DNA of 64,000 bases from Gammaproteobacteria bacterium (GTDB lineage: Bacteria > Pseudomonadota > Gammaproteobacteria > CAJXQU01): the NCBI GenBank assembly GCA_965238175.1, contig CBDEGZ010000003.1:1920001-1984000 (forward strand), read 5' to 3'. Positions 3,949 through 51,701 of this stretch are shown here, piece by piece. Positions within the stretch are counted from its first letter, which is position 1; each line of letters begins with the position of its first letter. The notes beneath the pieces are model-generated. The model searched no databases. It had not been told where the DNA came from and saw only the letters and a program-made list of their open reading frames with translations. Made by a program: the position numbers and the translations under genes.

Positions 3949-4106
3949 GATTATTTCCTATTGATTGGATTATTAAATATTACCGTGGAGCATATCTGAT
4001 ATGCATTTTTTATGGTAGTCACAATTTATCTTCATTTCTCTTTAAGAATTTACTAACTCGGCCGAAAACCTAGATGTGTATTTTTTAAAAATTCAACTGG
4101 TGAATT

Positions 4107-5147
4107 GTGAGATTTAACATCCTTGATTTAATTAGATTTATCGCGGCACTTTGTGTTGTGTTATATCACTATACTGCAGGTGAATTTTATACCTCCTATG
4201 GTTTCCTCACCGAAGTTACCAAGTTTGGTTACTTAGGAGTCCCTTTGTTTTTTATGCTGAGTGGTTTTGTTATCAGCGCTTCTGCACTTAATCGGACGCC
4301 AGCTGAGTTTGCAATCTCAAGACTCACTCGATTGTACCCGACTATTTTTGTTTGCTTGAGTATTACGACTGCAATAGTTCTACTATTTGGAAGTTCTGAG
4401 GATCAGCTTTCCGTTAAACAATTCATAAGTAATCTGACATTGTTGAACACATATGTTGGTGAGGAGTATATCGATGGTGTTTATTGGACCTTACTTGCTG
4501 AACTAAAATTTTACTGCTGTGTGTTTATATTATTAACGTTAGGTTTATTTGAAAAGTTTAAAATTTGGCTTAGTTGTTGGATGATAATGACTGTTATATT
4601 TTTGCTATATGGTCAGCCATTTTTTATGGGTTGGTTTATAAGCCCGGAATACTCTGCCTTTTTTATCGCCGGTGTTACTTTTTATCTTGCAGCGAAGAAT
4701 GGTTATAACAAGTTTTATATAAGTCTTTTAGCTTCATCGTTCATCGTCGGCAGTATTTTAGCGAATCAACAGGCTGAAGGATTTATGGAAAAATATGTCC
4801 CTGGTCAAATAGATCATCTTATTGTATTTGCATTTATTTGTTCTTTTTACATTCTGTTTTATCTGATTTCAAAAGATAGAATCCAGATTGGAAAGAGTCA
4901 GTTTTTATTAACGCTTGGAGGGATGACATATCCACTTTATCTACTCCATGGACGGATAGGAAATATAGCTTATAAGAATATGACAGGTTTTGATCCGCTA
5001 ATACTTCTAATTTTACTGATTGGATTAATGCTATTTTTGTCCTATCAAGTTCATACTCACATGGAAAAAAGAATCGCAAATTCGATCAAGAATTATCTTT
5101 TTGACAAGTTGCAGCTGTACAAGAGCGAAAGAAAGATAGTCAATTGA
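4107..5147 (+). CDS. Membrane acyltransferase (OafA/acyltransferase 3 family)
   Basis: LD.IRFIAA..VVLYH, GVPLFFMLSGF, R..RLYP, YWTL..E, YPLYLLH motifs; multiple hydrophobic segments. Confidence 0.88.
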   Translation: MRFNILDLIRFIAALCVVLYHYTAGEFYTSYGFLTEVTKFGYLGVPLFFMLSGFVISASALNRTPAEFAISRLTRLYPTIFVCLSITTAIVLLFGSSEDQLSVKQFISNLTLLNTYVGEEYIDGVYWTLLAELKFYCCVFILLTLGLFEKFKIWLSCWMIMTVIFLLYGQPFFMGWFISPEYSAFFIAGVTFYLAAKNGYNKFYISLLASSFIVGSILANQQAEGFMEKYVPGQIDHLIVFAFICSFYILFYLISKDRIQIGKSQFLLTLGGMTYPLYLLHGRIGNIAYKNMTGFDPLILLILLIGLMLFLSYQVHTHMEKRIANSIKNYLFDKLQLYKSERKIVN

Positions 5148-5217
5148 GTAAGGATGAACAAGATCTGATCAAAAATAGTTAATAGATTTAACCAGATCTT
5201 AATTTTTCAAAAAAAAC

Positions 5218-5388
5218 TTAAAGTGCTTCTGCACCGGCTTTAGCCATCTGCCCATCTTGAGATGACAGCACACCACTGATCCCAATAGCACCAACAATTT
5301 CACCATTACTTTTTATAGTGATCCCTCCTTCTATCGGCAACATTCCATCAAGTGATAAATAACCCTGACGACCATAATAGTTCATCAT
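5218..5388 (-). pseudogene. C-terminal remnant of a GlcG/HbpS heme-binding protein
   Basis: Hand translation MMNYYGRQGYLSLDGMLPIEGGITIKSNGEIVGAIGISGVLSSQDGQMAKAGAEAL (56 aa) matches the family's C-terminal GG..I...G..VGAIG.SG...D..A.AG pattern; N-terminal half missing. Confidence 0.7.
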
Positions 5389-5441
5389 GGTTGAGCTATC
5401 TCACGATTTATTTTTATACTTTGATAAACAATACCTTTAAC

Positions 5442-5984
5442 TTACCAATGTAAGTCATCTGGAATTTGAAAATCTGCGTAGGGATCACTTTCATCCTCAC
5501 CAGCGTCTTTTTTATCATTCAGAAGAATAAATACACGCGGATTCTTTTGAGCAACTTTTTCAGCGACTTCGGATGGAACGACACTATACTGATTTTTGAA
5601 TTTAACGATGGCTAGTCTTCCGTTACTGATTTTATCTCTAACAGAACTTGAAATGTATATGGTTTTAATCTTTTTCTGATCAGTAAAGTTAAATGATTCA
5701 CCCTCTTTCTCATCTGCAAGGCGATGAGTGTTGATCAATTGTTGAATTTGAGCGTTAACGGCTTGTTGATTAGCTTTCTCTTTTTGTTGCAGGTTGAGTT
5801 TTCTATCTTCTTCTTTCTTCTTTAACAAAGCCTTTTGCGCATTTATTTTATTTTGATCTTGAACGGGCTGTTTCGTATTGCGCTGTTGCTTATTATTTTT
5901 AGACTTTTCTTTTTGTAATTTCTGGGCTCGTTGTTTATCAACCAAACCCATTTTGAGCATTTGTTCTTGTAGTGATTTTGCCAT
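5442..5984 (-). CDS. DUF2058 (YaiL-like) protein
   Basis: Starts SLQEQ.LK.GL and ends DPYADFQIPDDL.W; start placed at the ATG at 5984. Confidence 0.85.
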   Translation of the reverse strand: MAKSLQEQMLKMGLVDKQRAQKLQKEKSKNNKQQRNTKQPVQDQNKINAQKALLKKKEEDRKLNLQQKEKANQQAVNAQIQQLINTHRLADEKEGESFNFTDQKKIKTIYISSSVRDKISNGRLAIVKFKNQYSVVPSEVAEKVAQKNPRVFILLNDKKDAGEDESDPYADFQIPDDLHW

Positions 5985-6179
5985 TTTTTTCAGTTCAACT
6001 ATATTTTGTTTAATTTTATAGTATCTGGTCAAAATAGAATACTTATTTTTGATTTCATCAGTATGAAATAATTATTGACTATCCTAACTAACTTATTCAG
6101 AAAATAAATTTTGGAATCAATATGTTACCGTTTAAGAAAATGATATTGTTTGTAGCAGTGGTCTTTCATTTAATATTAA

Positions 6180-6299
6180 TGTCCAATTGACGCAAAACAT
6201 AGTCCTAATCGTAAACCACTACTTGTGGTTACTAACGAAGTAAGTGGCACAACAGCAATTTACAAAATCAAAGTCCGATCAAAACATAAACATCATTAA
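6180..6299 (+). pseudogene. C-terminal remnant of a choice-of-anchor I / alkaline-phosphatase-associated protein
   Basis: Hand translation PIDAKHSPNRKPLLVVTNEVSGTTAIYKIK; SP..KPLL.V.NEVSGTT..Y is the family's typical C-terminus; in-frame TAA at 6177-6179 and no start codon. Confidence 0.6.
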
Positions 6300-6340
6300 T
6301 GGTTTAACGACCTTAAGAACTAATTTGATGCAAGTAAAAT

Positions 6341-6361
6341 CAGGGTAACTCGCTTACCCTG
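6341..6361 (+). terminator. Hairpin, possible terminator of the remnant gene
   Basis: CAGGGTAA-ctcgc-TTACCCTG 8-bp perfect stem; weak U tail. Confidence 0.4.
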
Positions 6362-6544
6362 GCTTGTATAATATTTTTAATTCACATTAATACCCTTAGT
6401 CTGGAGAGACCTCGTGAAATAATACCTGCTTTACATGAACGCTATTTCTTAACAAACTAAGCTAAAACAAAAACCATATTCATTTCTTAAATAGAAACGG
6501 AAGTTAGCTGGTTTGAAACTTCTGCCTCATAATAAGGATAAAGC

Positions 6545-8407
6545 TTGAGTAAACTTACCAGATCCTTCTATATTGCATTCATTGCTGCCTTGACGGGATG
6601 TCTTCTGCTGACGAGTACTTTAGGTGAGCGTCTGGAAGAAAACCTGGGTGAAATTTTTCTGTATAAGTTACGAGGAACTGTTTCGCCACCACCTGATGTG
6701 GCGATGGTTTATATTGATGGTAATACGGCTACTCAACTGGGTTTATCAGAAGAGTTAAAAAAATGGCCGCGTTCTGTTCATGCTTGTATTTTGAAGAAAC
6801 TTAAAGCCGCTGGTGCAAGTGTTGTTGTCTTTGACATTGCTTTCCTCGAGCCTGAAGTGACAATGACACACCCAGAGGAGATCTGTTCCGAAATACCTGC
6901 AGGAAACCATGCGGATGATGCCTTTGTTGATGCTGTTAAAGACTTTGGTAACGTTATACTTCTGGAAAAGCTGGAACAAGTGAACTATCGGACACCTGAT
7001 CAAACGCTTTCTACCTCTCAATCGATCAAACCGTTTGAAAAGTTAGCTGAAGCAGCCGTAGCCACAGGGCCATTTGTCTTGCCAGATGAAACATTGCGAC
7101 TTGCTACATTTTGGGCTTATCTTTGTGATCAACAATTGCTCAATAGAGTTGGTGGCTGTGCTAATAAAATAGCAACTCTTCCTATGTTAGCCCTACAGCA
7201 CTCTGAGGTTGAAAATAAACCAATAGATCTTCAACTTAATAAAAGTACTGACAGCATGAGGCTGAATTTTTATGGTCCGCCACGAACAATTCCTTGTCGT
7301 TCTTATCAGTCAATACTTGATCCAATGTTGCGAGATGAAGCGTGTGGCGATGTGGACTTTTCGGGGAAAGTGGTTTTTATTGGTATAGCAGAATACGATC
7401 GGCCTGCTCAGACTGATAGTTACTATACGGTTTTTTCAGGAAATGATGGTATTGATCTTGTCGGCGTTGAAGTGATGGCAACGGCATTTGCAAATCTTTT
7501 GACGGAGACCACGCTCAATAAACCCAACACAATTTATAGCCTGCTGATTATTGTTCTTGTGGCTATTATTCTAGGGATTCTTGTCTCTTTCTTTTCGTTA
7601 CTAACGGCTCTCGGTATTGGATCAGTCATTTTTATAACTTATCTGGCAATTGCTTATGTCGCTTTTACAAAATACTATCTGATACTGCCTGTCATGACTC
7701 CAATACTAATCCAGTCAACAGTAGCAATCATAATAGCCAGTTTCATACATTACCGTTATGAGAAAATTCGTCGAGAAGCGTTGCAACAGATCACCGGATA
7801 CTACATTTCAGAAAATGAGACTGATCAATCAACTTATGTATTGCCACCAACGGGACTAGTTTATGGTGTCTGTATGGCAACAGATATGGAGAATTCAACC
7901 GTACTTGTGGAAATGCTTGGGCCATCGAGATTTGCAGAGCTGATGGATTTATACTATTCCGAGTTGGCTTTAATAATAAAAAAACATGACGGCATATTAT
8001 TAGATATCGCCGGGGATGGAACAATGTCCGCCTGGCTCTTTAATAAAGAAGAATTTCCTAACGTTCAGACAAAAGCATGCAATGCTGCTTTAGAAATTAT
8101 CGCTGTGCAGGAACATTTGACAGTTAGTTTGAATAGTCCAATCCAAACACGGATCGGTTTGCATGCAGGGGAATTTACTTTGAATTTTGTCCGCATTGGC
8201 ATGCGTTACTTTTATAAAGGTACTGGCAATACGCTACATATCGCTTCACGAATTGAACAACTGAATAAAAAGTTGAACACAAAAATACTTCTGTCAGAGT
8301 CTATAGAAAAGAGCGTGGATAAAATCGCGCTGCAGCCTCATGGTTTATTTACGATTAAAGGGTTAAGCAAAAAAGTTAAAATATTTGAAATGTCAGAAAC
8401 AAAATAA
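6545..8407 (+). CDS. CHASE2-domain class III nucleotide (adenylate/guanylate) cyclase
   Basis: N-terminal TM, CHASE2 motifs (V.ID, WPRS.HA, V..FDI.F, GK.VFIG, GVEV.A), 3 TM helices, cyclase domain (TD...GD, RIGLHAG, ASRIE). Confidence 0.9.
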   Translation: MSKLTRSFYIAFIAALTGCLLLTSTLGERLEENLGEIFLYKLRGTVSPPPDVAMVYIDGNTATQLGLSEELKKWPRSVHACILKKLKAAGASVVVFDIAFLEPEVTMTHPEEICSEIPAGNHADDAFVDAVKDFGNVILLEKLEQVNYRTPDQTLSTSQSIKPFEKLAEAAVATGPFVLPDETLRLATFWAYLCDQQLLNRVGGCANKIATLPMLALQHSEVENKPIDLQLNKSTDSMRLNFYGPPRTIPCRSYQSILDPMLRDEACGDVDFSGKVVFIGIAEYDRPAQTDSYYTVFSGNDGIDLVGVEVMATAFANLLTETTLNKPNTIYSLLIIVLVAIILGILVSFFSLLTALGIGSVIFITYLAIAYVAFTKYYLILPVMTPILIQSTVAIIIASFIHYRYEKIRREALQQITGYYISENETDQSTYVLPPTGLVYGVCMATDMENSTVLVEMLGPSRFAELMDLYYSELALIIKKHDGILLDIAGDGTMSAWLFNKEEFPNVQTKACNAALEIIAVQEHLTVSLNSPIQTRIGLHAGEFTLNFVRIGMRYFYKGTGNTLHIASRIEQLNKKLNTKILLSESIEKSVDKIALQPHGLFTIKGLSKKVKIFEMSETK

Positions 8408-8589
8408 ATGTAAATCTATCTAATACCCTTAGGCAGCTTGCGTGAAAATAGGATACTATTTAAGGTTCCGGAGACACTCGTGAGAAACTGTAAAACAACG
8501 TTTTAATAATACTAACAATAAATACTCATTAGAAAGTGTACCGCTGTTATAAGCAAGTCTAAGGTAACCGGATAAATAAAGGGGATGGC

Positions 8590-11500
8590 ATGAAATGTAA
8601 ATATGGGTGGAGTGTTTCTACAATTCTGCTTGTTTTTTATTCGTGTATTTTCTCGCAAACAGTTGTTGCACAAACTAATTGCCCACGAGATCGAGCTCCC
8701 ATTGCCGAAGTTATATCTGTTCAAGGTATGCTTACACTAAATGGTGAGCAACTTTCAGTAAATGATCTGATCTGCCCAGGTCAAATAGTGCTTAATACCG
8801 AATCAAATAGTCGAGCTGCAATTCGCATTATAGCGACCGGCGTGAAAATCCGGCTTGATCAAAATACTGAACTACGTATGGATGCGTCGATTAGTTCAAC
8901 TTCAAGTAAAAATGCGGCAGACGATAACCAGAAATCATTTGTTGAACTTGTAACAGGTGCTATTAAAGCATTCACTCGCAAGCCTTATAAACTTGATGTA
9001 AGAACGCCTTACGTAACAGCGGGTGTAGAAGGGACAGAATTTATAGTTGAAGCTTTTGATGATGGCAGAGAAATTACCGTACATGTGTTTGAAGGGCATG
9101 TGCGTATGCTCTATGCATATAATGACCAACGTGCCGATCTGGATATTTTGGCTAATGAAGCCGGTTATGCAAGAAAAAATCAACCACCAGAGAAAGTTGA
9201 AAAACTCAAAATAAAGTCACGCGATCAAGTTGACTGGGCACTCTACTATCCAGCATTTTCAGGAATGCCAGCTCTAAATAAGGTAAATCAGCTACTGGCT
9301 GCAGGGCGGGTTGATGCAGCTAAAAAGCATCTCGATGCTTCTAACCTGCAAGATCAGAAATTAATATTGGATACAATAGTCAAAATTTCCAAAGGAAAAA
9401 GTCATCAAATAATCAATCAAGCCTCCTGGGTTAAAAAATTAGAAGCCACGTCTATAACACGACTGCTGCTTTCTTATGCCTACCAGGCAGATTTGCAACT
9501 GAACAAAGCGCTTGAAACACTGGAGAACACTAAAATCAAGGACGCGCTGATCTGGGCAAGAATAGCCGAACTGCGTCTTGCTAAAGGGGAGATAGAAGGA
9601 TCTGTTGATGCCGCACAACAAACTCCCATTAATTTTCAATTAAACAATTGCCTTTCTGAGGCTATCAGCAACCCGCCCAATTATATTGCTAGAACGCTCA
9701 CGGTCAGAGGTTTTACGAAACTTGCGCAAAGAGATGTGGAAAATGCAAAGGTGGAATTTGAATGCGCTATCCTGTTTGCCTCAGAGGATCCACTGCCCAG
9801 ATTTGGGCTTGGTTTAGCAAAGATCCGACAAGGACACACGCAACAAGGACGACATGATATTGAAACGGCGGCCTTACTTGATCCGACCAATGCACTTATT
9901 CGTAGTTATTTAGGCAAGGCATTTTTTGAAGAGAATAGGGGAATGCGTAATACCACATCAACAGATGAATGTGCCCAACAAACAGGGAATGATGCTGATC
10001 TGGCCGATCAACAATTGTGTATCGCTAAACAATTAGATCCCAACGATCCAACGCCGTGGTTCTATCATGCAATAAAAAAACAAACTGAAAATAAACCGGT
10101 GGAAGCCTTAAAAGATCTGCAAAAAGCCATCGACAAAAATCACAATCGAGCCGTTTATCGATCGGGATTTTTATTGGACAGCGATCTGGCTTCGCGCAGC
10201 GCCAGTCAGGGTCGGATCTACCGTGACTTAAAATTTGAACAGCTTGGACTGTTGCAAGGCTGGAAATCTGTTAATACCGATCATGGTGATTATTCGGGCC
10301 ACCGATTACTTGCAGATACCTATTCTGCATTACCGCGCCACGAAACTGCCCGTGTCAATGAACTCTACCAATCGCAATTATTACAGCCGCTAAATGTAAC
10401 GCCAGTGCAGTCGCAGCTAGCCGAAAAAAACCTGTCTATCTTGAATAATTCTGGTCCTTCAGAAGTATCATTTAACGAATTTAATCCTTTATTTACCCAA
10501 AATGGTTTGTCCATGCAGAGTTCCGCTGTGGTCGGTGGCAATAGTACTTGGGGTGAGGATATTACTATCGCTGGTCTGTATGACAACTGGTCAATTAACC
10601 TGGGCCAATTTCATTTTGAAACCGCTGGGTTTCATGACAATAATGGGTTGGAAAAAGATGTGTTAAGTGCAACGCTGCAATACAGCCCAGATCAAAACAC
10701 CTCGTTTTTAGCGGAACTAAGAACGAGCGAAAGGGAACAGGGCGATCTAGCGCTTTTATTTGATAGCAATAATTTTAGATCTAATGCCGCTCTAAAAGAA
10801 CAAATTCATTTACTTAAGACAGGTTTCCATCATCAATTTTCACCTCAATCTGAAATTATTGGTTCATTTATTTATCAAGTTGCAAAGATAAACGTACGGG
10901 ATGAACCTTTTTTTGAACTTGATGCGGATCTTGGCGGATACACTACTGAGTTACAGCATCTATACCAGGGGCAACACGGGCGTTTGACCAGCGGTGTTAG
11001 ATATTCTCATCGTGATCAGAAAGAGTCGGTGCAACTGTCTTTTTCGCTGCCTGTTCCTCCATTCAATGTTCAAAGTGATTTTACTAGAAAACATATCATT
11101 GAGCAGGCCAGTCTATACTTATATTCATATACTGATCTAAGTAAGAACGTAAGTATCACACTCGGTGGCAGCTTTGATTCTCTTAATGGACGCGCTACAA
11201 ACAAGGATTTATTCAATCCAAAGCTCGGATTAATTTGGGAACCCATATCAAGCACAACGTTTCGCGCTGCCGTATTCAAAACCTTGCAAGGGCCAGCCTT
11301 TTCACGCCAAGATCTCCAACCCTCTATAGAACCAACGCAAGTAGCCGGTTTTAATCAGTTCTTTTTTGATGACGTTGAAGGTGATGTTAATTGGCGATAT
11401 GCGATTGCCCTGGATCATGAGTTTTCCCCAAACTTATATTCAGGGTTAGAGCTTTCAAAAAGAACACGCGATAGACCTTTTCTCACATTAGGTGTCTCTG

Positions 11501-11961
11501 AACAACTTGAAACCATTGATTGGAAAGAATATTCTGCACGATTTTATACCTATTGGACTCCAGCTTCTGGTCTGACTTTAACTGCAACCTACCAATTTGA
11601 TAAAAGGGATAATGGAGATAATGGTTTAAATGAAGCTGCTTTGGAAATGCAAATTCATCGACTCCCACTGAAACTTAATTATTTTCATCCGAACGGTATT
11701 AGTAGTGGGATAACCGCAAGCTATGTTTATGAAAAAGGTATCTTTCAAGATGCAAATGCAAACACATTTTCTAGGGGTAAGGATAGCTTTTGGGTGGTAG
11801 ATGCGGCCTTAAGCTATCGACTGCCGAAACGTTATGGAATTATTTCATTGAGTGTCGATAATCTATTCGACCAGAAATTTCAGTTTCAGGATATTGATCC
11901 GGAAAATATAGAGCTAAAACCAGAGAGAATGAGCTTAATTAAATTTACACTTTCTTTCTAA
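8590..11961 (+). CDS. FecR-domain + TPR + beta-barrel outer-membrane receptor (NsrA-like)
   Basis: Signal peptide; FecR-like LDVRTP..TAGVEGTEF; TPR-like helices (A..LDP.N...RSYLGKA, LDPNDPTPWFY); TonB-receptor-like barrel ending in Phe. Confidence 0.82.
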   Translation: MKCKYGWSVSTILLVFYSCIFSQTVVAQTNCPRDRAPIAEVISVQGMLTLNGEQLSVNDLICPGQIVLNTESNSRAAIRIIATGVKIRLDQNTELRMDASISSTSSKNAADDNQKSFVELVTGAIKAFTRKPYKLDVRTPYVTAGVEGTEFIVEAFDDGREITVHVFEGHVRMLYAYNDQRADLDILANEAGYARKNQPPEKVEKLKIKSRDQVDWALYYPAFSGMPALNKVNQLLAAGRVDAAKKHLDASNLQDQKLILDTIVKISKGKSHQIINQASWVKKLEATSITRLLLSYAYQADLQLNKALETLENTKIKDALIWARIAELRLAKGEIEGSVDAAQQTPINFQLNNCLSEAISNPPNYIARTLTVRGFTKLAQRDVENAKVEFECAILFASEDPLPRFGLGLAKIRQGHTQQGRHDIETAALLDPTNALIRSYLGKAFFEENRGMRNTTSTDECAQQTGNDADLADQQLCIAKQLDPNDPTPWFYHAIKKQTENKPVEALKDLQKAIDKNHNRAVYRSGFLLDSDLASRSASQGRIYRDLKFEQLGLLQGWKSVNTDHGDYSGHRLLADTYSALPRHETARVNELYQSQLLQPLNVTPVQSQLAEKNLSILNNSGPSEVSFNEFNPLFTQNGLSMQSSAVVGGNSTWGEDITIAGLYDNWSINLGQFHFETAGFHDNNGLEKDVLSATLQYSPDQNTSFLAELRTSEREQGDLALLFDSNNFRSNAALKEQIHLLKTGFHHQFSPQSEIIGSFIYQVAKINVRDEPFFELDADLGGYTTELQHLYQGQHGRLTSGVRYSHRDQKESVQLSFSLPVPPFNVQSDFTRKHIIEQASLYLYSYTDLSKNVSITLGGSFDSLNGRATNKDLFNPKLGLIWEPISSTTFRAAVFKTLQGPAFSRQDLQPSIEPTQVAGFNQFFFDDVEGDVNWRYAIALDHEFSPNLYSGLELSKRTRDRPFLTLGVSEQLETIDWKEYSARFYTYWTPASGLTLTATYQFDKRDNGDNGLNEAALEMQIHRLPLKLNYFHPNGISSGITASYVYEKGIFQDANANTFSRGKDSFWVVDAALSYRLPKRYGIISLSVDNLFDQKFQFQDIDPENIELKPERMSLIKFTLSF

Positions 11962-12026
11962 ATTTAACGCTGATCGTAGCAAAACCAGTCTTACCCATCA
12001 GTTTTTTTAAACTAAATTGCACACAT

Positions 12027-12042
12027 TGTGTTTTTTCTCACA
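12027..12042. promoter_or_regulatory. CRP-type binding site upstream of small secreted protein
   Basis: TGTGT-N6-TCACA (9/10 to TGTGA-N6-TCACA); TAGTAT -10-like hexamer at 12064-12069, class II spacing. Confidence 0.75.
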
Positions 12043-12142
12043 TCTTTATTTTCATCAATCCTTTAGTATTTATTGGTGAGCCAGTTAATCGTTGCTCATC
12101 CCGATAAAAATCAATTTATTAAAATATAAAGGGGATAAACCT

Positions 12143-12388
12143 ATGTTAAATCGTAAACTTTTAGTATCAATCATCAGTTTTTCAGTTTTCTCACTCTGTA
12201 GTGTTATGCAAACTGCGTATGCATCTGCTGCTGATAGTTATAGTATTAATGACAATATAAATGTGGAGTTTGTGGAAAACCTCACGTCATCAGGGAGGCT
12301 GCAAAGTATGCAAGGAGATGTTATTTCTCACGGTAGACATTGCTACTTTATTATCTTCGGAAATGAGCTGTTTGTGTATCACTGTTGA
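12143..12388 (+). CDS. Small secreted protein (81 aa) with C-terminal Cys-x13-Cys loop
   Basis: RBS AAAGGGGA before the ATG at 12143; Sec signal ending AYA; ends CYFIIFGNELFVYHC. Confidence 0.7.
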   Translation: MLNRKLLVSIISFSVFSLCSVMQTAYASAADSYSINDNINVEFVENLTSSGRLQSMQGDVISHGRHCYFIIFGNELFVYHC

Positions 12389-12517
12389 TCTTTAGAATTT
12401 ACAGTGAGTGTTCGAATGTGCATATATAAATATTAATTAAATAGCTAGTAAGTATGCTTTTTACCAAAGAGTTAAGCTTTATCATTTACTGTGTGGTGTC
12501 AGGCTTACTCAGTTCAT

Positions 12518-12558
12518 AGCAGATAACCAGCATCACTTTTGGTTATCTGCTTGTTTTT
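12518..12558 (+). terminator. Rho-independent terminator
   Basis: AGCAGATAACCA / TGGTTATCTGCT 12-bp stem followed by TGTTTTTT. Confidence 0.8.
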
Positions 12559-12618
12559 TAAAAATCTTACTGGATAATCATTCACTATTTTTAGTGTAAT
12601 CAAGGAAGGATTTCTGTT

Positions 12619-13332
12619 TTGGATGACTTCAATTTCATTCCTGTTACTGCGGATTTATTATTAGGTATAGATTTGTTCCGAGATCTGCCCGCAGGTGATC
12701 GAAGTCTAATTGCACAGCATTGTGTCGGTAAGGAATATGCTGCACACAAATTAGTTTTAACCCAAAAAGATTTGTCCGGAGATGTTTATTTCGTTATCAG
12801 CGGAAGAGTGCGTGTTACTTATTTCTCTATATCGGGTAAAGAAGTTACTTTTCGTGAACAAAATGCGGGTGAGATGTTTGGTGAATTGTCGGCAATTGAT
12901 GCTAAACCACGTTCCACACAGGTAATAACAGGTTCAGATGCTATTCTTGCCTCAATGAGTTCTACTGATTTTCAGGCGCTGCTACAGGAGAATTCCAAAC
13001 TTGCCTGCAAAGTTATGCAGCATTTAACCAGCCTTGTTAGATTATTGTCAGAACGCATTGTCGAATTCTCAGCACTTGCTGTTAAAAATCGGATCCATGC
13101 GGAGTTATTGTGGATCGCCTTAAAAGGGAAGGTCGTCGATGGTCGTGTGATCATAAAACCGGTACCAACGCATGCAGATATATCAACCCGTATCAGTTCG
13201 CACCGTGAAGCCGTTACTCGTGAATTGAAAAGGCTTGAACAGAAGGGTCTGCTTGAGCGGCATCATGACAAATGGATTATCTTAGATCTTGAACGATTAC
13301 AAACTATGGTTCTGGATGTTTTGGGTGTTTAA
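12619..13332 (+). CDS. Crp/Fnr-family cNMP-binding transcriptional regulator
   Basis: cNMP pocket GEMFGELS....PRST; HTH THADI......REAVTREL. Confidence 0.93.
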   Translation: MDDFNFIPVTADLLLGIDLFRDLPAGDRSLIAQHCVGKEYAAHKLVLTQKDLSGDVYFVISGRVRVTYFSISGKEVTFREQNAGEMFGELSAIDAKPRSTQVITGSDAILASMSSTDFQALLQENSKLACKVMQHLTSLVRLLSERIVEFSALAVKNRIHAELLWIALKGKVVDGRVIIKPVPTHADISTRISSHREAVTRELKRLEQKGLLERHHDKWIILDLERLQTMVLDVLGV

Positions 13333-13425
13333 TTTATAAAGCCCCCAATAAAAATCAGCATTAATTGCTTTAAACAACTGTTTTACTTAATTCTTCTAAT
13401 ATTATTACAACTATTTTCCTCGAAT

Positions 13426-13441
13426 TGTGAGAAAAACCACA
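13426..13441. promoter_or_regulatory. CRP-type binding site upstream of subtilase
   Basis: TGTGA-GAAAAA-CCACA; 15/16 identical to the reverse complement of the 12027 site. Confidence 0.75.
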
Positions 13442-13519
13442 GCACAAATTCCTGGATCAGGTTTTAATTAGTCGTGTTAGAAAGAAACGTTATCTATTAA
13501 ACGACATGAGGAAAATCAA

Positions 13520-14629
13520 ATGAGTTTAAAGTCATTAAATAGAACAAAAACCAAACCTATTTTTACTCTACCGCCCTATAAAGTTGAACAAATTATTTCA
13601 TCTACTTCAGAAATAATAGATTGGGGTCTTGAAATGCTTTCGGTACCTGATAGTTGGAGAGATGCTCAAGGTGCAGGCGTTAAAGTTGCTGTTTTAGATA
13701 CAGGTGCGGATTTATACCATCCGGATTTAAGAAGTAGCGTTGTAAAAGCTGAAGATTTTACGAATAGCGCTGTCGGTGCGCAGGATATTGATGGGCATGG
13801 TACTCATGTGGCAGGAACCATAGCAGCTAAAAAGAATCGGCACGGTGTCGTTGGTGTTGCTCCAGAGGCCGAACTTCTTATCGCAAAGGTGTTAGGTGAT
13901 TTTGGATACGGGACAGAAGAGGCCGTTGCAAACGGCATAAACTGGGCGATAGAAAATGATGCAGATATTATTTCTATGAGTTTGGCCAGTAGCCTATATA
14001 GCAAAAAAGTTCATGCTGCAGTCAAAGCAGCATACAAAGTTAACAAGACAATTATATGTACTGCCAGTAACGAAGGTTCAAAACTGGAAACAATGACCTA
14101 TCCGGGAAAATTTGAAGAAACCATTGCCGTAGGTACCATTGATAGTTCTAAAAAGGTTTCCGGTTATTCAAAGCGAGAATCACAGGTAGACATCGTCGCG
14201 CCAGGTGATCAAGTTCTTTCAACCTATCCAACAGGGGGTTATGCTGAACTAAGCGGTTCCTCTATGACAACACCTCTTGTGTCAGGCATTATCGCTTTAA
14301 TGTTTTCTAAATTTCGACGATTTAGTGGGGCGAATCCTCTAGAAGATCGAGAAGAACTTATTCGGCATTTACGAGAAACAGCTACAAACTTAGGTCCGGA
14401 CAGATTTGATCCTGGTTACGGTTATGGATTAATCAACCCTGAAGATTTGCTCTCTGCGCAATCAAGATTCCTTTTGAATTTAATACCTTCAGATGATCTA
14501 ACAAAGTCAGGTAAGAAGAAACTTAGTAAATTTATGAACAGAGGAAAAACAAAGCCATCTGTCAATAATTCTGCACACCTACAAGATGGGTATGGAGAAA
14601 TAAGAGGTGGTGTCAGGATAAAGATATAA
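13520..14629 (+). CDS. S8 subtilisin-family serine protease, intracellular (ISP) type
   Basis: VAVLDTG, HGTHVAG, SGSSM.TP triad; no signal peptide; N-terminal LPPY motif. Confidence 0.9.
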   Translation: MSLKSLNRTKTKPIFTLPPYKVEQIISSTSEIIDWGLEMLSVPDSWRDAQGAGVKVAVLDTGADLYHPDLRSSVVKAEDFTNSAVGAQDIDGHGTHVAGTIAAKKNRHGVVGVAPEAELLIAKVLGDFGYGTEEAVANGINWAIENDADIISMSLASSLYSKKVHAAVKAAYKVNKTIICTASNEGSKLETMTYPGKFEETIAVGTIDSSKKVSGYSKRESQVDIVAPGDQVLSTYPTGGYAELSGSSMTTPLVSGIIALMFSKFRRFSGANPLEDREELIRHLRETATNLGPDRFDPGYGYGLINPEDLLSAQSRFLLNLIPSDDLTKSGKKKLSKFMNRGKTKPSVNNSAHLQDGYGEIRGGVRIKI

Positions 14630-14652
14630 CCAACCTGCGCTTGATGTATGGG

Positions 14653-14684
14653 CTCCACGACTACTACCGAGAAGTAGCGTGGAG
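14653..14684. terminator. Hairpin between convergent genes
   Basis: CTCCACG(A)CTACT-accgaga-AGTAGCGTGGAG stem with a one-base bulge. Confidence 0.45.
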
Positions 14685-14804
14685 TGACCAAGCTAAAGAT
14701 CATAAATAAGCGTAATGTGCTATATCTTTAGATCTTGCAAAACGTGTTATTCAAATAAGTAAAGTTAGTCCTGCTTTTTAAGCTCAGGCTCTAATGAAAT
14801 AGAT

Positions 14805-16355
14805 CTACTTGCTCTGAACAGCCCAGTTAAGATCAGATAATGTATTTACAGTTGATCCTCCAGCCTCTAATAGAATAGGGCCGCTCATAAGGTACATATG
14901 ATTTTGGCCAGTCACATTATTTCGCCAGAATATATCCTGTTTCCCATCGCCATTGTAATCACCAATAGCCCGAATATCCCAGGCTAGTGAGGTGAACTCA
15001 ACGTGTTGGCCAGGTGCACCTGCTGTGCTATTTGAAATATTGGGGCCATTCATAAGATACAACCAAACCCGACCATTAGTGCTATGCCTCCATAGAATAT
15101 CGCCTTTACCATCAGCATCAAAATCACCAACGCCTTGTATATTCCAGTTCTCACTGGTGAATGCGACATGCTCACCTGTGCCTGATCCATTAATGATATT
15201 ATTGCCATTCATCGAATAAAGCCACACACGTCGATTGACGTTATTGCGCCAGAGGACATCGTCTCTTCCATCGTTATTGAAATCTGCAATACCGGAAACT
15301 ACCCAATTTTTATCAGGAATGGTATTTACCTGGAGAGTTACATTCAGGTTAGTGCCGTTCAAAAAACTAATCCGGTTCTCACCATCATCGTGATGCCAAA
15401 AAATATCGTTATTTCCGTCGCCGTTAAAATCTCCTGTCCCAGCGATTTTCCATTTGGTGTCGGTAAAAGGAGGGATGGTCAGATCAATTCCTCTTATTAC
15501 GTTTACGCCGTTCATAATAGTTATCTGGTTTGAGCCATTATTGGTGTTTCGCCAGAGAAGGTCAGAGCTGCCATCTTTGTCGAAATCACTGTTTCCAACT
15601 ACTACCCAAGTGGATTCAGCAGAAAACAGGCTTACATCTGCACTTGATGCGACAACACTACTATTCATCAAATAAATCCTGTTATTGTTCGTAATAACAT
15701 TACGCCAGAAAATATCGGACTTTCCATCATTATTAAAATCATTTTTGTCTGCGAGATTGTTTATTCTTGGGGCATTGAGTTCAGGGTAGAGTACTTTAAT
15801 ACCTAGAAGATCATCGTTTTGGATACTTCGGATTTCATCGTTGTAAAATGACTGTAAGATAGAGTTCGTAGTATCTTCGTGATCCAAACCTAGAGTATGG
15901 CCTAGCTCATGTAATGCCACTCTGTAAAAATCTGTGGTTCCATTTGATGATGCTCCATCGAAAACACCCCATTGAACACTGGAATTATTAAAAACAATAT
16001 CTGTTTCTACTATTGAGCCATTTGACGAAAGCAATCCGGTAATGGCCAATGTACCGCGACCCCAATTTGCACCACAATAAGTGTTGGAAAACCCAACACC
16101 GTTTCTATTGTCGTCAGAACATGGGTTTTGATAAGTATTAATTGTTTGTAAATTAAAGCCAGCAGTATTATTCCAATTCGCCATCGCAGACTGGAAAGAA
16201 GAAGAAAACTGGCCGATATCTACATAGAATACGATATTAGTTGTAGCCCATTTAGCCGGTGGGCTAAAGATAAACGAATAAGCAAAAAGCGAGGAGTTAT
16301 ACGTAAGCATCAGTATGGTAATGAAAATGTTTTTTTTGATATTCATCACTACCAA
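14805..16355 (-). CDS. Secreted matrixin-like zinc metalloprotease with FG-GAP/VCBS repeats
   Basis: Signal peptide; HELGHTLGLDH; six D[FY]..DG..D repeats; start may be the ATG at 16346. Confidence 0.88.
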   Translation of the reverse strand: MVVMNIKKNIFITILMLTYNSSLFAYSFIFSPPAKWATTNIVFYVDIGQFSSSFQSAMANWNNTAGFNLQTINTYQNPCSDDNRNGVGFSNTYCGANWGRGTLAITGLLSSNGSIVETDIVFNNSSVQWGVFDGASSNGTTDFYRVALHELGHTLGLDHEDTTNSILQSFYNDEIRSIQNDDLLGIKVLYPELNAPRINNLADKNDFNNDGKSDIFWRNVITNNNRIYLMNSSVVASSADVSLFSAESTWVVVGNSDFDKDGSSDLLWRNTNNGSNQITIMNGVNVIRGIDLTIPPFTDTKWKIAGTGDFNGDGNNDIFWHHDDGENRISFLNGTNLNVTLQVNTIPDKNWVVSGIADFNNDGRDDVLWRNNVNRRVWLYSMNGNNIINGSGTGEHVAFTSENWNIQGVGDFDADGKGDILWRHSTNGRVWLYLMNGPNISNSTAGAPGQHVEFTSLAWDIRAIGDYNGDGKQDIFWRNNVTGQNHMYLMSGPILLEAGGSTVNTLSDLNWAVQSK

Positions 16356-16996
16356 CCTATTTCTTTAAGTTTTTGCTTGAACTCGCCTGGTGTCATGCCG
16401 TTTGGAGTAGCGTTATCTGTGGATGTCGGATTTGATGCAAGACTAGCGGCTTTAATAGTTCTAAGTCCAGCGGCGGTACCATCACTTATTAAGTCTTTAT
16501 TCGGTATATTAGATTCAACACTCTCTACTTGCTTGCCTTCCGCTGTATTGACTCGTTCTACCCCCTTTTGATCGGTTTTAATAATATAGTGACCTTGTGT
16601 CCAACCAAACAAGGGATTAATCAAATATTCATTCAGAGACTCTACGAAATAGATCCCCTTTTCACCGGGAGCTGGATATTTCATGTCGGGTATGTGAACC
16701 TTTTTACCATTATATTCGCCACCGACGAATCGTAGCTCTATTGTGTTACCTTGATCAGTACCTTTAACCACGTCATTTATCTGAAAGGTGATGTCTGTAA
16801 CAATCCAGTGGTTGTTAGCATCCATCCCCGTTTCGACGGCGATCACTTCACCTTCAAACACAAACTCTGCTTCGCTTAGAAGTTCGTTAACGTTGAATGA
16901 GCGAACAGTAGTAGCCTTTGAAGTACTAGCAAATAAGAGTGTGCACAGTAAAAAGAATAATTTTAAAAGTTTTGCTGGAGTTGTGATTTTGATCAT
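16349..16996 (-). CDS. Secreted hypothetical protein, probable OB/TIMP-like fold, partner of the matrixin
   Basis: Signal peptide (ASTSKA); L...A..VFEG.V.....V..V.KG pattern; stop codon abuts the matrixin start. Confidence 0.65.
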   Translation of the reverse strand: MIKITTPAKLLKLFFLLCTLLFASTSKATTVRSFNVNELLSEAEFVFEGEVIAVETGMDANNHWIVTDITFQINDVVKGTDQGNTIELRFVGGEYNGKKVHIPDMKYPAPGEKGIYFVESLNEYLINPLFGWTQGHYIIKTDQKGVERVNTAEGKQVESVESNIPNKDLISDGTAAGLRTIKAASLASNPTSTDNATPNGMTPGEFKQKLKEIGW

Positions 16997-17239
16997 ATCA
17001 ATTATTTCAATGCCCTTTTAATAATGAATCCATGCTTATGACTGCATGAATTATAATACATTTCCAGGGGACACGGGTATAGAATGTTTAAAACCTTGTC
17101 CCATATTAATAATTTAGGACTCGGGTTTCTTATAAAAGTTTTATGTGGTTTTGATAAATACATCATAAATCAGGTGAAATTCAATTTGAGACATAAGGGC
17201 ATGAGCAATTAATTTCATGATTTTAAAAGAGGATGTTTA

Positions 17240-18040
17240 TTGGTGAAAAAAGAGATAAGTATTCTAGGAGGTGGTTGGCTTGGGTTTCCACTTGCGGAAC
17301 ACTTTTTATCACAAGGACACAAGGTGAAAGTATCAACGAGAACAGAGGTTCATCTTGCAGATCTTAAATCCAACAATCTTGAACCTTACTTGATTGATAT
17401 AGCTCGTCTTGATACCCAAGTACAAAAGAATAAGCTTCAGGAATTTTTAAATGCAGAGATTTTAATTATAAATATTACATCAAAAAATCCTGATGATTTT
17501 CGAAGCTTGTTGGATGAAGTTGATCAATCAAAGATTGAAAATATTTTGTTTGTTAGTTCGACCTCCGTCTATGAAAATAATAACAAAGTTATAACTGAGG
17601 ATAGTAGTTTCGAGTCTGATAAAAGCCCTTTATTTGAGATCGAAAACCTAATAAAAAGTAATCAAAAGATCGAGTTCACAATAGTTAGATTTGGTGGCTT
17701 GATTGGTTACAGTCGAAAACCAGGTAATTTTTTTCGCAAAAGGGATCTTGTTGATTTTCCTGAGTCACCAATCAATTTGATCCATAGAGATGATTGTATA
17801 AATATTATCAGTCGAATTGTTGAACAAAATGTTTGGGGAGACGTTTTTAATTGTTGTGCTGACACGCATCCAACGAAAAAAGAATTTTATACCAAAGCAA
17901 CACAAACTATAGGACAAGCTGTCCCAAATTTTGTAATTGCAGAGTTTAACGAATTTAAGATCATTGATAATACAAAGGTGAAGCGAATTTTAAATTATGA
18001 ATTTATATATCCAGACTTAATGGAAATAGATCTTTCATAA
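17240..18040 (+). CDS. NAD(P)-dependent epimerase/dehydratase (YeeZ-like)
   Basis: ILGGGWLG Rossmann motif, SSTSVY, N.IHRDD. Confidence 0.85.
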   Translation: MVKKEISILGGGWLGFPLAEHFLSQGHKVKVSTRTEVHLADLKSNNLEPYLIDIARLDTQVQKNKLQEFLNAEILIINITSKNPDDFRSLLDEVDQSKIENILFVSSTSVYENNNKVITEDSSFESDKSPLFEIENLIKSNQKIEFTIVRFGGLIGYSRKPGNFFRKRDLVDFPESPINLIHRDDCINIISRIVEQNVWGDVFNCCADTHPTKKEFYTKATQTIGQAVPNFVIAEFNEFKIIDNTKVKRILNYEFIYPDLMEIDLS

Positions 18041-18350
18041 TTAATTTTTAGAAATACGGAACGAACTGCAGTAACAACATTGGGTTTTTCACCGGTACTA
18101 CGTAATGCATTAGTGAGTTAGTTATTTAATGTTGAATGTCCTTACCTGCTAATCCTTGATTACATATATTGTCTAGATACTGTCCAGGAAAATAATGATC
18201 TTCAACTTTCACCTTTCTGTTGTGATTATGTAATGAGCTAGTGATTTTATTTTTTACTTTTAGTATTACAGTGGTGAATTGCGACGACATTTTTTTGTAG
18301 TTAGTTCTGCAAATTCCAAGTATGATTTTTAAGGTGTTATTATAAAGTAG

Positions 18351-19079
18351 TTAAAAATTAATTTGTTTTAATAGCATTAAAATACCTGCAACAAACATCA
18401 TAATCATTGTATAGAAACGAAATCGATCTTTATCAACTTGATACAAATGGTTGCGTGCTAAATAAACACCAATAATTGCACCAGCACCTAATAGAATTCC
18501 ATAAAGTGCAATTTCAAAAGTTAAGACGCCAAAGATCGTGTAGGTAGTCAGTTTTGTTAATTGCATTGCAAGTGAATTGATCGATTTTGTAGCGACCAAT
18601 TGTTCTTTCTCAAGACCGTAGTTAAGCATAAAAGGGTTTAAAACAGGCCCCGTTGCACCGATCAGGCCGGAGAGAAAAGAGATCAAAACGCCTAAGGGAA
18701 AAAATAATAGTTTCTGCATTTTAAAGGTTAGCTTTGATTTTCCAAATTGATATTGAAAAACATAACTGATCAAAAATAGCGCGATAACAATTTGCATCCA
18801 TTTTGGATCAAGGAAACTAAATGACCATGCACCAAGAAATGCACCTATCAAGCTGCCAGGTAAAAGAAATTTGATCACGTTCCAATCCACATGTTCACGA
18901 AACATCCATGCACGTGCTGGATTGCTACAAATGGCCGCGAGTGAAATAATGGGAGCAACGTATTGAGCGCCAAGTAGAATTCCTATTACTGGAATTAGAA
19001 TAGTCGCTGCGCCGCCAGCAGCAATGGTACTTATAAACCAGGCAACTGCTCCGCAGAGAATAAGCAATAGATAAATCAT
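18351..19079 (-). CDS. Sulfite exporter TauE/SafE family membrane protein
   Basis: Internally repeated hydrophobic halves with G/P-rich motifs (AGGAATILIP; SGLIGATGP). Confidence 0.8.
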   Translation of the reverse strand: MIYLLLILCGAVAWFISTIAAGGAATILIPVIGILLGAQYVAPIISLAAICSNPARAWMFREHVDWNVIKFLLPGSLIGAFLGAWSFSFLDPKWMQIVIALFLISYVFQYQFGKSKLTFKMQKLLFFPLGVLISFLSGLIGATGPVLNPFMLNYGLEKEQLVATKSINSLAMQLTKLTTYTIFGVLTFEIALYGILLGAGAIIGVYLARNHLYQVDKDRFRFYTMIMMFVAGILMLLKQINF

Positions 19080-19092
19080 TGTTCAATATTTT

Positions 19093-19938
19093 CTAAATAT
19101 TCAATAATGACCAAACAGGCGTTATTGAACTCGACAAGGCAGGGAATCTTCCTGGTTGGTTGCTGTACTGTTTGTGACCATGGAAATCTGATCCTACAGA
19201 GCCCATTAGATCAAATTGCAAGGCATATCCCAGGCTGGTTTCAATCTCTGCAGGGGTGTAATAACCGCAAACGACTTCCATTGCCTGACCGCCATTTTCT
19301 TTAAAGCTGGTTAATAGACGTCTCATCCATGAGGCTGTTAATTTATAGCGTAAGGGGTGTGCAAGTATTGCGATTCCCCCAGCTTGATTTATAAGATTTA
19401 GAACCTTTTCCATTGAGGGCCACTCGGTTGAAACATAGGCCTTCTTATTGTTGCCGAGATAACGTTTAAAAGCATCTTGCGGATCTTTTGCGTAACCTTG
19501 TTGAACGAGGAATTGTGCAAAGTGAGGTCGAGTTAAAAGACCACCATTAGAAAACTTTTTTGCTCCTTCTAATGCTTCACTTATGCCTGCACCTTCGAGT
19601 TTTTTTGCGATCCGTTCTGCACGTTCCAGGCGTTGTTTCTTTATGCTTTCTAATGCTTCTTTTAATTGACTATTTTTTGGATCAATATTTAAGGCAATGA
19701 TGTGTAGAACTTTTTTATTCCAGGTCGCAGACATCTCGATACCATTGATAAATTTTATACCTTTTTGTTCTGCTATATTACGCGCTTCTTCCAAACCTTC
19801 GGTAGTGTCGTGATCGGTTAGTGACATTACATTTACTTTATTTTCATGAACCAGCTCAACGAGTTTCGTCGGTGACAGTAGGCCATCAGAAGCAGTCGAA
19901 TGCATATGTAGATCAATAATAAAGTTTTCTTCAGTCAT
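19093..19938 (-). CDS. PHP-domain phosphatase/nuclease (YciV/TrpH-like)
   Basis: DLHMHSTASDG, LTDHDT, RPHFA, AHP, GSDFHG motifs. Confidence 0.9.
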   Translation of the reverse strand: MTEENFIIDLHMHSTASDGLLSPTKLVELVHENKVNVMSLTDHDTTEGLEEARNIAEQKGIKFINGIEMSATWNKKVLHIIALNIDPKNSQLKEALESIKKQRLERAERIAKKLEGAGISEALEGAKKFSNGGLLTRPHFAQFLVQQGYAKDPQDAFKRYLGNNKKAYVSTEWPSMEKVLNLINQAGGIAILAHPLRYKLTASWMRRLLTSFKENGGQAMEVVCGYYTPAEIETSLGYALQFDLMGSVGSDFHGHKQYSNQPGRFPALSSSITPVWSLLNI

Positions 19939-19974
19939 ATGTTTATGATAATAATTTCTCTTCTAACTATTTTA

Positions 19975-21861: not shown

Positions 21862-21972
21862 GATTATGAAGGCGGCAAATAAAGCGACAGAGTATATACC
21901 CAAATTACCTGAAAATGCCGGATTATAATCCTTCTGTTTTGATCCGAAGTGTGGTTGCCCCTTGCTGGATTG

Positions 21973-36085: not shown

Positions 36086-36586
36086 ATGATAACTCCCCGA
36101 CAGATTTTTCTATTTATATTCCTTACCTGTGCCGGCTTAATGGGTTTTGGTTTTTACTTACAGTATGTTCAAGGGCTAGAACCCTGTGTTCTATGTATGG
36201 TGCAGCGTTTATTTTTTGTACTGCTCGGCACCACAGCGTTATTTGCTTTTTTACATAATCCTGGTCGAACAGGTACGCGGTTTTATGCAATTTTAATCAG
36301 TCTATTCTCCGCATGCGGTGCTGCAATTGCCGGACGTCAGATCTGGTTACAACACTTACCGGCAGATCAGGTGCCTGAATGCGGTCCAGATCTGTTTTTT
36401 ATGTTGGAAGTCTATCCACTCACAGAAGCACTAATGACCGCCTTAAAAGGGACGGGGGATTGTGCAAAGATTGTCTGGACGTTTCTTGGGTTTTCAATCC
36501 CTGAATGGGCGATTGTGATTTTTATCGGAATATTTCTGGCTAGTCTTTATCTGGTTTTTAAGCCTTTAAACTATTCTGAAGAATAG
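36086..36586 (+). CDS. dsbB: Disulfide bond formation protein B
   Basis: PCVLC..QR, second Cys pair (ECG...GDC), 4 TMs. Confidence 0.93.
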   Translation: MITPRQIFLFIFLTCAGLMGFGFYLQYVQGLEPCVLCMVQRLFFVLLGTTALFAFLHNPGRTGTRFYAILISLFSACGAAIAGRQIWLQHLPADQVPECGPDLFFMLEVYPLTEALMTALKGTGDCAKIVWTFLGFSIPEWAIVIFIGIFLASLYLVFKPLNYSEE

Positions 36587-48367: not shown

Positions 48368-48389
48368 TTATCGATTAATAGACTCACAC

Positions 48390-50841: not shown

Positions 50842-50857
50842 GATAAATTGTTTTTTT

Positions 50858-51700: not shown

Positions 51701-51701
51701 G

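Follow-up and report, generated by a model that had tools for sequence, protein, structure and literature searches.

Directly downstream of a receptor gene in a Gammaproteobacteria bacterium genome (assembly GCA_965238175.1, contig CBDEGZ010000003.1, positions 1,920,001 to 1,984,000; this whole stretch of 64,000 nucleotides (nt) is called the window here) lies a small open reading frame (ORF) for a protein of 81 amino acids (aa) that begins with a predicted signal peptide and ends in a loop bounded by two cysteines. Judging from its sequence and its surroundings, we give a probability of roughly 55% to the reading that this small ORF is a genuine gene, whose exported and disulfide-stapled product serves the cyclic-nucleotide module encoded beside it as an accessory or output protein. 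That module would combine a plug-less FecR-TPR receptor resembling NsrA of Sinorhizobium meliloti with a CHASE2 nucleotide cyclase of the inner membrane and a regulator of the Crp family. Under this proposal, the protein would be exported through the Sec system and cut after A27, the Dsb system would join both cysteines into a staple across a C-terminal beta-hairpin, and the remaining acidic protein of 54 aa would work in the periplasm or at the outer membrane, where it may contact the receptor or the CHASE2 domain. Its gene would probably be transcribed in two ways, by read-through from the cyclase-receptor transcript and from a class II promoter of its own that depends on a cyclic nucleotide and presumably on the locally encoded Crp-family protein, so the level of the small protein would track the output of the module.

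An earlier note on this DNA, drawn from the letters alone, had read the ORF as a signal peptide, a polar spacer and a terminal Cys-x13-Cys, accompanied by a CRP box, a ribosome-binding site and a terminator, and each of these elements could be located in or around the 81-aa ORF (coordinates in Table 1). The predicted signal peptide, read by eye, starts with MLNRK as its basic n-region, continues with a hydrophobic core of 17 residues and closes with A-Y-A ahead of S28, and the Kyte-Doolittle hydrophobicity of the protein peaks at 2.28, at residue 6. With an upstream TTG at 12092 as an alternative start the protein would be 17 residues longer, but the Shine-Dalgarno sequence serves the ATG. At the other end of the protein, a polar acidic stretch leads to H66-C67, 13 residues (YFIIFGNELFVYH) with a central G73-N74, and C81 right before the stop codon. 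The AlphaFold2 (AF2) model of the small protein, made from a 30-row alignment, places strands at mature residues 30-35, 41-45 and 48-53, with a mean predicted local distance difference test score (pLDDT) of 54.9, i.e., with low confidence. The window also holds a DsbB gene (36086-36586). A Cys-loop tail alone is not rare, since 10 of the 273 window ORFs of 40-300 aa match a crude version of the pattern. What places the small ORF above chance is the combination of its features together with its place in the locus, on the same strand as the receptor gene and starting 181 nt past its stop codon, rather than the tail or the CRP-like box singly.

To compare this place with its equivalents elsewhere, we scanned one genome per species with an alignment of the receptor, which matched 596 stretches, 464 of them encoding a relative. 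The related loci analysed here (referred to by L numbers) are the best 80 of these 464, with receptor identities of 33-42%, and according to their record titles they span proteobacterial classes, Nitrospirota and Desulfobacterota-type lineages. A relative of the CHASE2 cyclase stands beside the receptor gene in 63 of the 80, and a Crp-family gene is found near it in 27. Positional counts were made on the 65 loci with at least 400 nt after the receptor gene, and an ORF was counted as being in position if it lay on the same strand and started no more than 450 nt after the FecR-TPR-barrel gene. Nearly all of these loci (63/65) have some same-strand ORF of 60-300 aa in that position; in 52 of the 65 an ORF in position has at least two cysteines among its last 40 residues, in 41 of the 65 one has a hydrophobic N-terminal segment, and in 30 of the 65 one shows a strict Cys-loop pattern, which we defined as Cys-x(8-16)-Cys, rich in hydrophobic and aromatic residues, with a central G, N, D or P and ending within 14 residues of the stop.

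The earlier note had proposed searching receptor/cyclase loci for small ORFs ending in Cys-loops, and such ORFs turned out to be enriched there. The strict pattern is present in 31 of 120 positional ORFs against 226 of 8486 ORFs elsewhere (p 4.2e-21), and the combination of two tail cysteines with a hydrophobic N-terminal segment in 34 of 94 against 268 of 4695 (p 3.8e-18). The small ORF of the window has the strict pattern and lies in this position. At the related loci the small ORF usually begins 16-180 nt after the receptor gene and looks co-transcribed with it.

Reading the DNA of these loci shows a recurrent C-terminal tail of 15-20 residues, a hydrophobic loop bounded by a cysteine at each end and with a glycine in the middle (L008, L017, L061, L064 and L076 are examples; the L015 tail reads HC...HC). 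By hand count, both cysteines are kept in 25 of 30 aligned tails, so the pair, whose lack of conservation would have counted against the earlier note, does recur in the equivalent ORFs. In the five exceptions (L045, L049, L053, L054 and L056) the hairpin pattern is kept and His-Tyr replaces the first cysteine. The N-termini are less uniform. Among 37 positional proteins classed by a script with a hydrophobicity cut-off of 1.8, 11 carry a lipoprotein box, 13 have another kind of hydrophobic N-terminal segment and 13 have none. The second class includes the window protein and, by eye, L026, whose script score of 1.68 lies below the cut-off; the third includes L059, in which a hydrophobic stretch is present but not N-terminal.

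The closest comparison comes from the receptors themselves. We built a FastTree phylogeny (LG+gamma, 1112 columns) of 75 receptors, i.e., that of the window and those of 74 loci, leaving out six loci whose receptor ORF was interrupted or did not reach 900 aa. In this tree the window receptor forms a clade with those of L007, L015 and L026 at a Shimodaira-Hasegawa-like support of 0.986, and each of these three loci has a neighbouring ORF that ends in C-x14-C with a central G, where the window has C-x13-C. The L007 protein (by script) and the L026 protein (by eye) have a signal-like N-terminal segment, as the window protein does, and the L015 tail has the same His-Cys ends. The strongest sign that the window ORF corresponds to theirs is this same kind of tail, found in the same position among the nearest receptor relatives. 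Within the clade, the sister loci L015 (13297-13590) and L026 (8741-9061; tree support 0.994) differ in their export signal: the L026 protein has a signal peptide, and the L015 protein has an N-terminus rich in Lys and Arg with no hydrophobic segment.

The regulatory signals around the small ORF are consistent with dual transcription. The spacing of 29.5 nt between the centre of the 12027 box and the hexamer TAGTAT is repeated at the second CRP-like box, at 13426, where the hexamer TTTAAT begins at 13463, and this is the geometry of class II CRP promoters; in AT-rich DNA read by eye it is a weak indication. A consensus promoter scan gave no plus-strand promoter at the 12064 hexamer. Over the whole window, five CRP-like boxes were seen against 2.69 expected, and five or more occurred in 15 of 100 shuffles, so the boxes are not enriched as such; three of the five (12027, 13426 and 16982) surround the Crp-family gene. 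The terminator begins 129 nt past the small-ORF stop and is the sole terminator-like site in 11800-12750, where 0.4 would be expected. The claim that the small ORF is monocistronic thus stands in part: it has a box and a terminator of its own, but because no terminator-like site lies between the receptor stop (11961) and the small ORF, read-through from the cyclase-receptor transcript is possible.

Whether the positional small ORFs make up one family was assessed with profiles. In leave-one-out tests, hidden Markov models (HMMs) found 12 of the 29 left-out members again at E<0.01 and missed the other 17. Profile comparison with hhalign tied subgroup A to F (P 8.8e-6, 83% probability), to E (1.1e-3) and to D (6.2e-3), and D also to F (7.8e-3), and left the Cys-less lipoprotein group and the L039 type unlinked to the other subgroups. 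Within the demonstrably related core, the similarity spans up to 58 columns and so reaches beyond the tail. A profile of 30 equivalent proteins searched against 5.8 billion clusters gave 23 matches, mostly near kin of the Cys-less lipoprotein subgroup and all unnamed or "hypothetical", and an HMM iterated from five core members did not grow beyond those five. The same profile of equivalent proteins found nothing under E 0.056 among PDB sequences, the top scores in the ESM Atlas (0.83 and 0.89) fell short of the level of a lead, and 22 counterparts from related loci had no relevant Pfam or NCBIfam family at E<=1.

The window protein itself is a sequence orphan. In a word-indexed search of 5.8 billion clusters it matched itself alone, and a full HMMER scan of 1.84 billion representatives added three matches, each internally repetitive and matched over three to four stretches, which we rejected as spurious hits to repeat proteins. 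No sequence relative was thus found in about 15 billion proteins. Pfam and NCBIfam assigned it to no family, tblastn against plasmids and phages gave no match at E<=1, and Rfam had no family over 11700-12900.

Several results weigh against the reading of the small ORF as an exported module protein. As far as its sequence goes, the set of positional small ORFs appears to be a loose one that forms a single family only in part, and 13 of the 37 proteins classed lack an export signal, which does not suit a uniform periplasmic role. The phmmer search with the window protein matched nothing at any of the 80 related loci, and comparison of the window protein with each subgroup by hhalign reached a best P of 0.076, which is not significant. 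An HMM of 29 tails gives the window ORF 6.0 bits and an E of 7.4; it does rank this ORF first of 497 window ORFs, from a source alignment made with the window sequence included, and in 29 leave-one-out rebuilds the window ORF scored an E of 34-950 or was unlisted. Against the 29 tails hhalign aligned exactly the 17 hairpin columns, at P 0.0065 and a probability of 5.8%, again not significant. The codon-usage score of the small ORF, 0.017 bits per codon, is below that of 99.4% of 81-codon windows from real genes and is exceeded by 38% of shadow ORFs. Lastly, none of 27 CRP-type sites lay near the small ORFs of the 80 related loci. Because the similarity to the subgroups is not significant, the membership of the window ORF rests on its position, its pattern and the receptor tree.

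Among the alternatives, the one that survives best, and that we still regard as unlikely, is close to what the earlier note proposed: that the product is a pre-pro-peptide from which a cyclised hairpin of about 17 residues is cut off, perhaps by the adjacent S8 peptidase, and then either diffuses as a signal that the NsrA-like receptor and the CHASE2 cyclase perceive or acts as an antimicrobial. The confinement of the window protein's similarity to the 17 hairpin columns would suit such a peptide, as would the CRP-like box of matching geometry at the S8 gene, the S8 gene that lies 21 nt past the small ORF in L015 of the same receptor clade, with its HC-to-HC tail, and the response of the S. 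meliloti NsrA/CyaK pathway to a proteinaceous signal as described in PMC7529298. Proteolytic release nevertheless finds little echo elsewhere. An S8 gene accompanies the small ORF in only two of 81 loci, the window and L015 (the one case among the 80 related loci), and the window S8 protein has no signal peptide when read by eye. No recurrent partner of any kind emerged when 124 ORFs lying downstream of the receptor gene, from 48 loci, were scanned with Pfam; the peptidases among them were one S8, two C39-like (L024 and L028), one M48, one M15 and one Lon-like. In the window, Pfam found no maturase or dedicated peptidase-exporter of the sort that accompanies ribosomally synthesised and post-translationally modified peptides, either within 5 kb of the small ORF or among the scanned genes of 2521-21903. 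A freely diffusing product also sits badly with the equivalents, at least 11 of 37 of which carry a lipoprotein box and would hence be anchored, and with a core similarity that exceeds the tail. Disulfide-stapled beta-hairpin antimicrobial peptides are cationic and amphipathic. The window protein shares their Cys-closed hairpin, but its loop is hydrophobic with one basic and one acidic residue, and its mature form is acidic, making an antimicrobial hairpin unlikely. Proteolytic-release, antimicrobial and amyloid roles for the small protein are all unsupported.

A further alternative, which we consider quite improbable, is that the ORF encodes a real secreted protein, such as a lineage-specific effector or a product resembling a bacteriocin, which entered the locus by insertion and has no functional tie to the cyclase module. 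It would explain why the protein is a sequence orphan of low guanine-plus-cytosine (GC) content with a promoter-like box and a terminator of its own, and it agrees with a rearranged locus, in which the crp-like gene follows the small ORF instead of lying upstream of the cyclase, its place in 25 of the 27 loci with a Crp-family gene near the module. However, both the tail pattern and the position agree with those of the nearest receptor relatives, and no mobile-element gene was found among ORFs of at least 100 aa in 1-30000, as far as these were scanned with Pfam and NCBIfam. Least probable of all is that the ORF arose by chance in the AT-rich DNA that separates the receptor and crp-like genes, in which case the terminator would be that of the receptor operon and the box would serve some other regulation: the lone self-match, the codon score inside the shadow-ORF range, the non-significant profile scores and a GC of 0.32 in 12000-12499 against 0.37-0.41 on both flanks all speak for it, but a signal peptide with an AXA site, a well-spaced ribosome-binding site and a Cys-loop tail coincide exactly where related loci carry such ORFs, the codon score of frame 0 tops the other five frames by at least 0.45, and the region has no Rfam family.

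Table 1. Features of the cyclase-receptor locus, in window coordinates.
Feature	Position	Strand	Details
CHASE2-domain class III nucleotide cyclase, 620 aa	6545-8407	+	Pfam CHASE2 3.2e-26, Guanylate_cyc 6.7e-10; first gene of the module
NsrA-like outer-membrane receptor, 1123 aa	8590-11961	+	Pfam FecR, TPR, TonB_dep_Rec_b-barrel; signal peptide
CRP-like palindrome TGTGTTTTTTCTCACA	12027-12042		1 mismatch to TGTGA-N6-TCACA; centre 108.5 nt 5' of the ATG
-10-like hexamer TAGTAT	12064-12069	+	begins 29.5 nt from the centre of the 12027 box; read by eye
Shine-Dalgarno AAGGGGA	12129-12135	+	7 nt from the ATG
Small ORF	12143-12388	+	81 aa; ATG at 12143, TGA at 12386-12388
Predicted signal peptide, residues 1-27	12143-12223	+	predicted cut after A-Y-A; read by eye
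Predicted mature small protein, 54 aa, acidic, beta-rich	12224-12385	+	6 Asp+Glu, 2 Lys+Arg, 3 His
C-terminal Cys67-x13-Cys81 putative hairpin	12341-12385	+	central Gly-Asn; His before each Cys
Intrinsic terminator	12518-12561	+	hairpin 12518-12551 with 13-bp stem and 8-nt loop, then T run
Crp/Fnr-family regulator, 237 aa	12619-13332	+	Pfam cNMP_binding 2.6e-17, HTH_Crp_2 1.7e-11
Second CRP-like box TGTGAGAAAAACCACA	13426-13441		86.5 nt 5' of the S8 peptidase ATG
S8 subtilase, 369 aa	13520-14629	+	Pfam Peptidase_S8 9.9e-54; no N-terminal signal peptide (read by eye)
Exported M10 metallopeptidase with FG-GAP repeats	14805-16355	-	Pfam scan

The receptor of the window has no Plug domain in Pfam. 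Its AF2 model (98-row alignment, pLDDT 84.9) consists of a beta-sandwich (39-203), a helical superhelix (227-598) and about 22 strands (639-1122), and the top Foldseek matches are TonB-dependent transporters, e.g., FpvA, PqqU, FecA and BtuB. It is thus modelled as a transporter-like barrel of about 22 strands lacking a plug. The closest relative of this receptor (P0003, 69% identity) is encoded on a contig of 3830 bases. The Crp-family protein scores 65.5 bits against the NCBIfam CRP model, below the cut-off of 266. The S8 subtilase is possibly co-regulated with the small ORF, as the 13426 box and the shared spacing of the -10-like hexamers suggest, and is not a conserved partner. The third CRP-like box (16982-16997) overlaps the annotated start of a 215-aa exported protein without a known family (16349-16996, minus strand), which is encoded upstream of the exported M10 metallopeptidase; it could serve this operon (16349-16996/14805-16355) or a plus-strand gene at 17240. 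The window also encodes RapA, EpmA/EpmB with EF-P and a UvrY/GacA-type regulator, a gammaproteobacterial gene set, and several large ORFs (38871-41273, 47426-52727 and others) without an NCBIfam match at 1e-10, among them one of 799 aa at 38871-41270 and a run of four at 48932-52724.

The related loci vary in further ways. Five have tandem pairs of receptor-family genes (L014, L016, L018, L045 and L065), and in L016 a second small ORF, following the first (13903-14493), scores against the tail profile too, at E 0.006. The receptor family is also paired with a CHASE2-SpoIIE phosphatase (L009, 4974-7187) and, in L042 (16545-18377), with a CHASE2 protein that has no recognised output domain. Downstream genes include phosphodiesterase-like ones (L005, L034 and L075), ones for cyclic-nucleotide-monophosphate-binding proteins (L005, L010, L026 and L075) and, in one of the 48 loci, a radical SAM gene (L078).

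The NsrA/CyaK/Clr system of S. meliloti is the one cyclase system of this type that has been studied, and in it the transfer of the signal from receptor to cyclase is still open. A small protein that recurs directly after the receptor gene in many lineages would be a testable candidate for a missing component, and such short ORFs can be recognised by position and tail pattern where sequence searches come up empty. A bolder extension, which we put forward as a long shot, is that the Cys-loop proteins complete, as a fourth component so far missed, a cyclic-nucleotide pathway that spans the envelope and is widespread; they would serve as a self-encoded ligand, plug or co-receptor for the NsrA barrel, and their release or transfer would switch the CHASE2 cyclase on. 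If so, the versions without an export signal and with a basic N-terminus might act only after lysis, as a "damage" signal from kin, which would echo the response of NsrA/CyaK to a basic protein in varied extracts (PMC7529298). CHASE2, a common extracytoplasmic sensor domain whose recognised factors are called unknown (PMC5192318), would then gain its first genetically linked protein input.

The CHASE2-cyclase/FecR-receptor module itself is already known. The cyclic AMP (cAMP) cascade of S. meliloti is described as comprising three CHASE2 cyclases (CyaD1, CyaD2 and CyaK), NsrA in the outer membrane and the Crp-like regulator Clr (PMC7529298, PMC13001267), with NsrA and CyaK required for sensing a proteinaceous signal and responding to a basic protein in extracts of Escherichia coli, S. 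meliloti, yeast and plant nodules (PMC7529298). The best plasmid match of the window cyclase is S. meliloti cyaK, at 22% identity over 88% of the query. While tblastn of the receptor against plasmids gave no match at 1e-5, the gene directly before cyaK on pSymB encodes a 1197-aa FecR-domain protein with the same Pfam layout as the window receptor, and BLASTP between the two is collinear in the FecR, TPR and C-terminal barrel regions (best E 3e-6). We take this protein to be NsrA by its size and its position beside cyaK. The window receptor, whose gene adjoins that of a CHASE2 cyclase, has the features by which we recognise the NsrA type: a FecR domain, a TPR region and, at its C-terminus, a barrel of some 500 aa. 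The two systems share the CHASE2 cyclase, the Crp-like regulator and an outer-membrane FecR-TPR-barrel protein about 1200 aa long. In contrast to the window, the order on pSymB is receptor then cyclase, separated by 145 nt, with no small ORF following the receptor gene; a second rhizobial locus (L082) has this order too, with no space for a small ORF. Divergent from the NsrA-like gene and cyaK on pSymB stands a gene annotated as DUF5706 (L081, 2498-3043; Pfam PycTM 9.4e-12), which looks like a cyclic-nucleotide-activated Pycsar effector beside a cyclase.

Other described clusters resemble the window in part. In Campylobacterota, a CHASE2 adenylate cyclase and an outer-membrane protein with a FecR domain are encoded in a conserved cluster and have been proposed to act in a single pathway; the other members of the cluster are a phosphodiesterase and a TPR protein, and the description mentions no small protein (PMC9239204). 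A Burkholderia operon is described as encoding a response regulator, a LysM-FecR protein, a CHASE2 kinase and a DUF4136 protein (PMC5192318). Like the window, it combines a CHASE2 sensor with a FecR-domain protein and ends in a gene for a small uncharacterised protein, but its output is a histidine kinase instead of a cyclase and its last gene is DUF4136, which matched none of 22 relatives at E<=1 and not the window protein at E<=0.01. In the open-access literature we found no mention of a small protein within the NsrA/CHASE2-cyclase module.

Small envelope proteins in or on large barrels are known from RcsF with OmpA/C/F and from LptE with LptD. Both that type and our proposal for the window combine a small, disulfide-bearing and often lipidated protein with an outer-membrane barrel and a sensor in the inner membrane; the resemblance would be one of possible working principle rather than of sequence or fold. 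Three observations leave room for a physical partnership with the receptor: the barrel has no plug, some of the equivalent proteins carry a lipoprotein box, and elsewhere the small ORF is closely coupled to the receptor gene.

The most instructive comparison is with a second S. meliloti locus, where clr, cyaD1 (CHASE2), smc02177 (FecR domain) and smc02178 are described as clustered; SMc02178 is reported to have a cleavable signal peptide, to have been shown periplasmic and to belong to no known family, and cAMP-Clr to activate smc02178 directly at a palindromic box (PMC5498481, PMC4222275). Since smc02178 is reported as dispensable for signal perception in S. meliloti (PMC5498481), it would be an output rather than a receptor subunit, and this speaks against our proposal insofar as the accessory protein is taken as such a subunit. 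The two loci differ in that SMc02177 is a separate FecR protein, where the window counterpart is a receptor of about 1100 aa with a barrel, and in that the smc02178 box is TGTT-N8-AACA at the class I distance of 61.5 bp, as opposed to TGTG-N8-CACA at an apparent class II distance in the window. Because of the SMc02178 precedent and the window's own box, an output or feedback-controlled accessory is the role we favour for the small protein. Likened by description, the two proteins share a place beside FecR-domain, CHASE2 cyclase and Crp-family genes, the predicted signal peptide and the CRP-like box of the window ORF would match the signal peptide and the promoter palindrome of SMc02178, and by this analogy SMc02178 appears to be the closest described counterpart of the window small protein.

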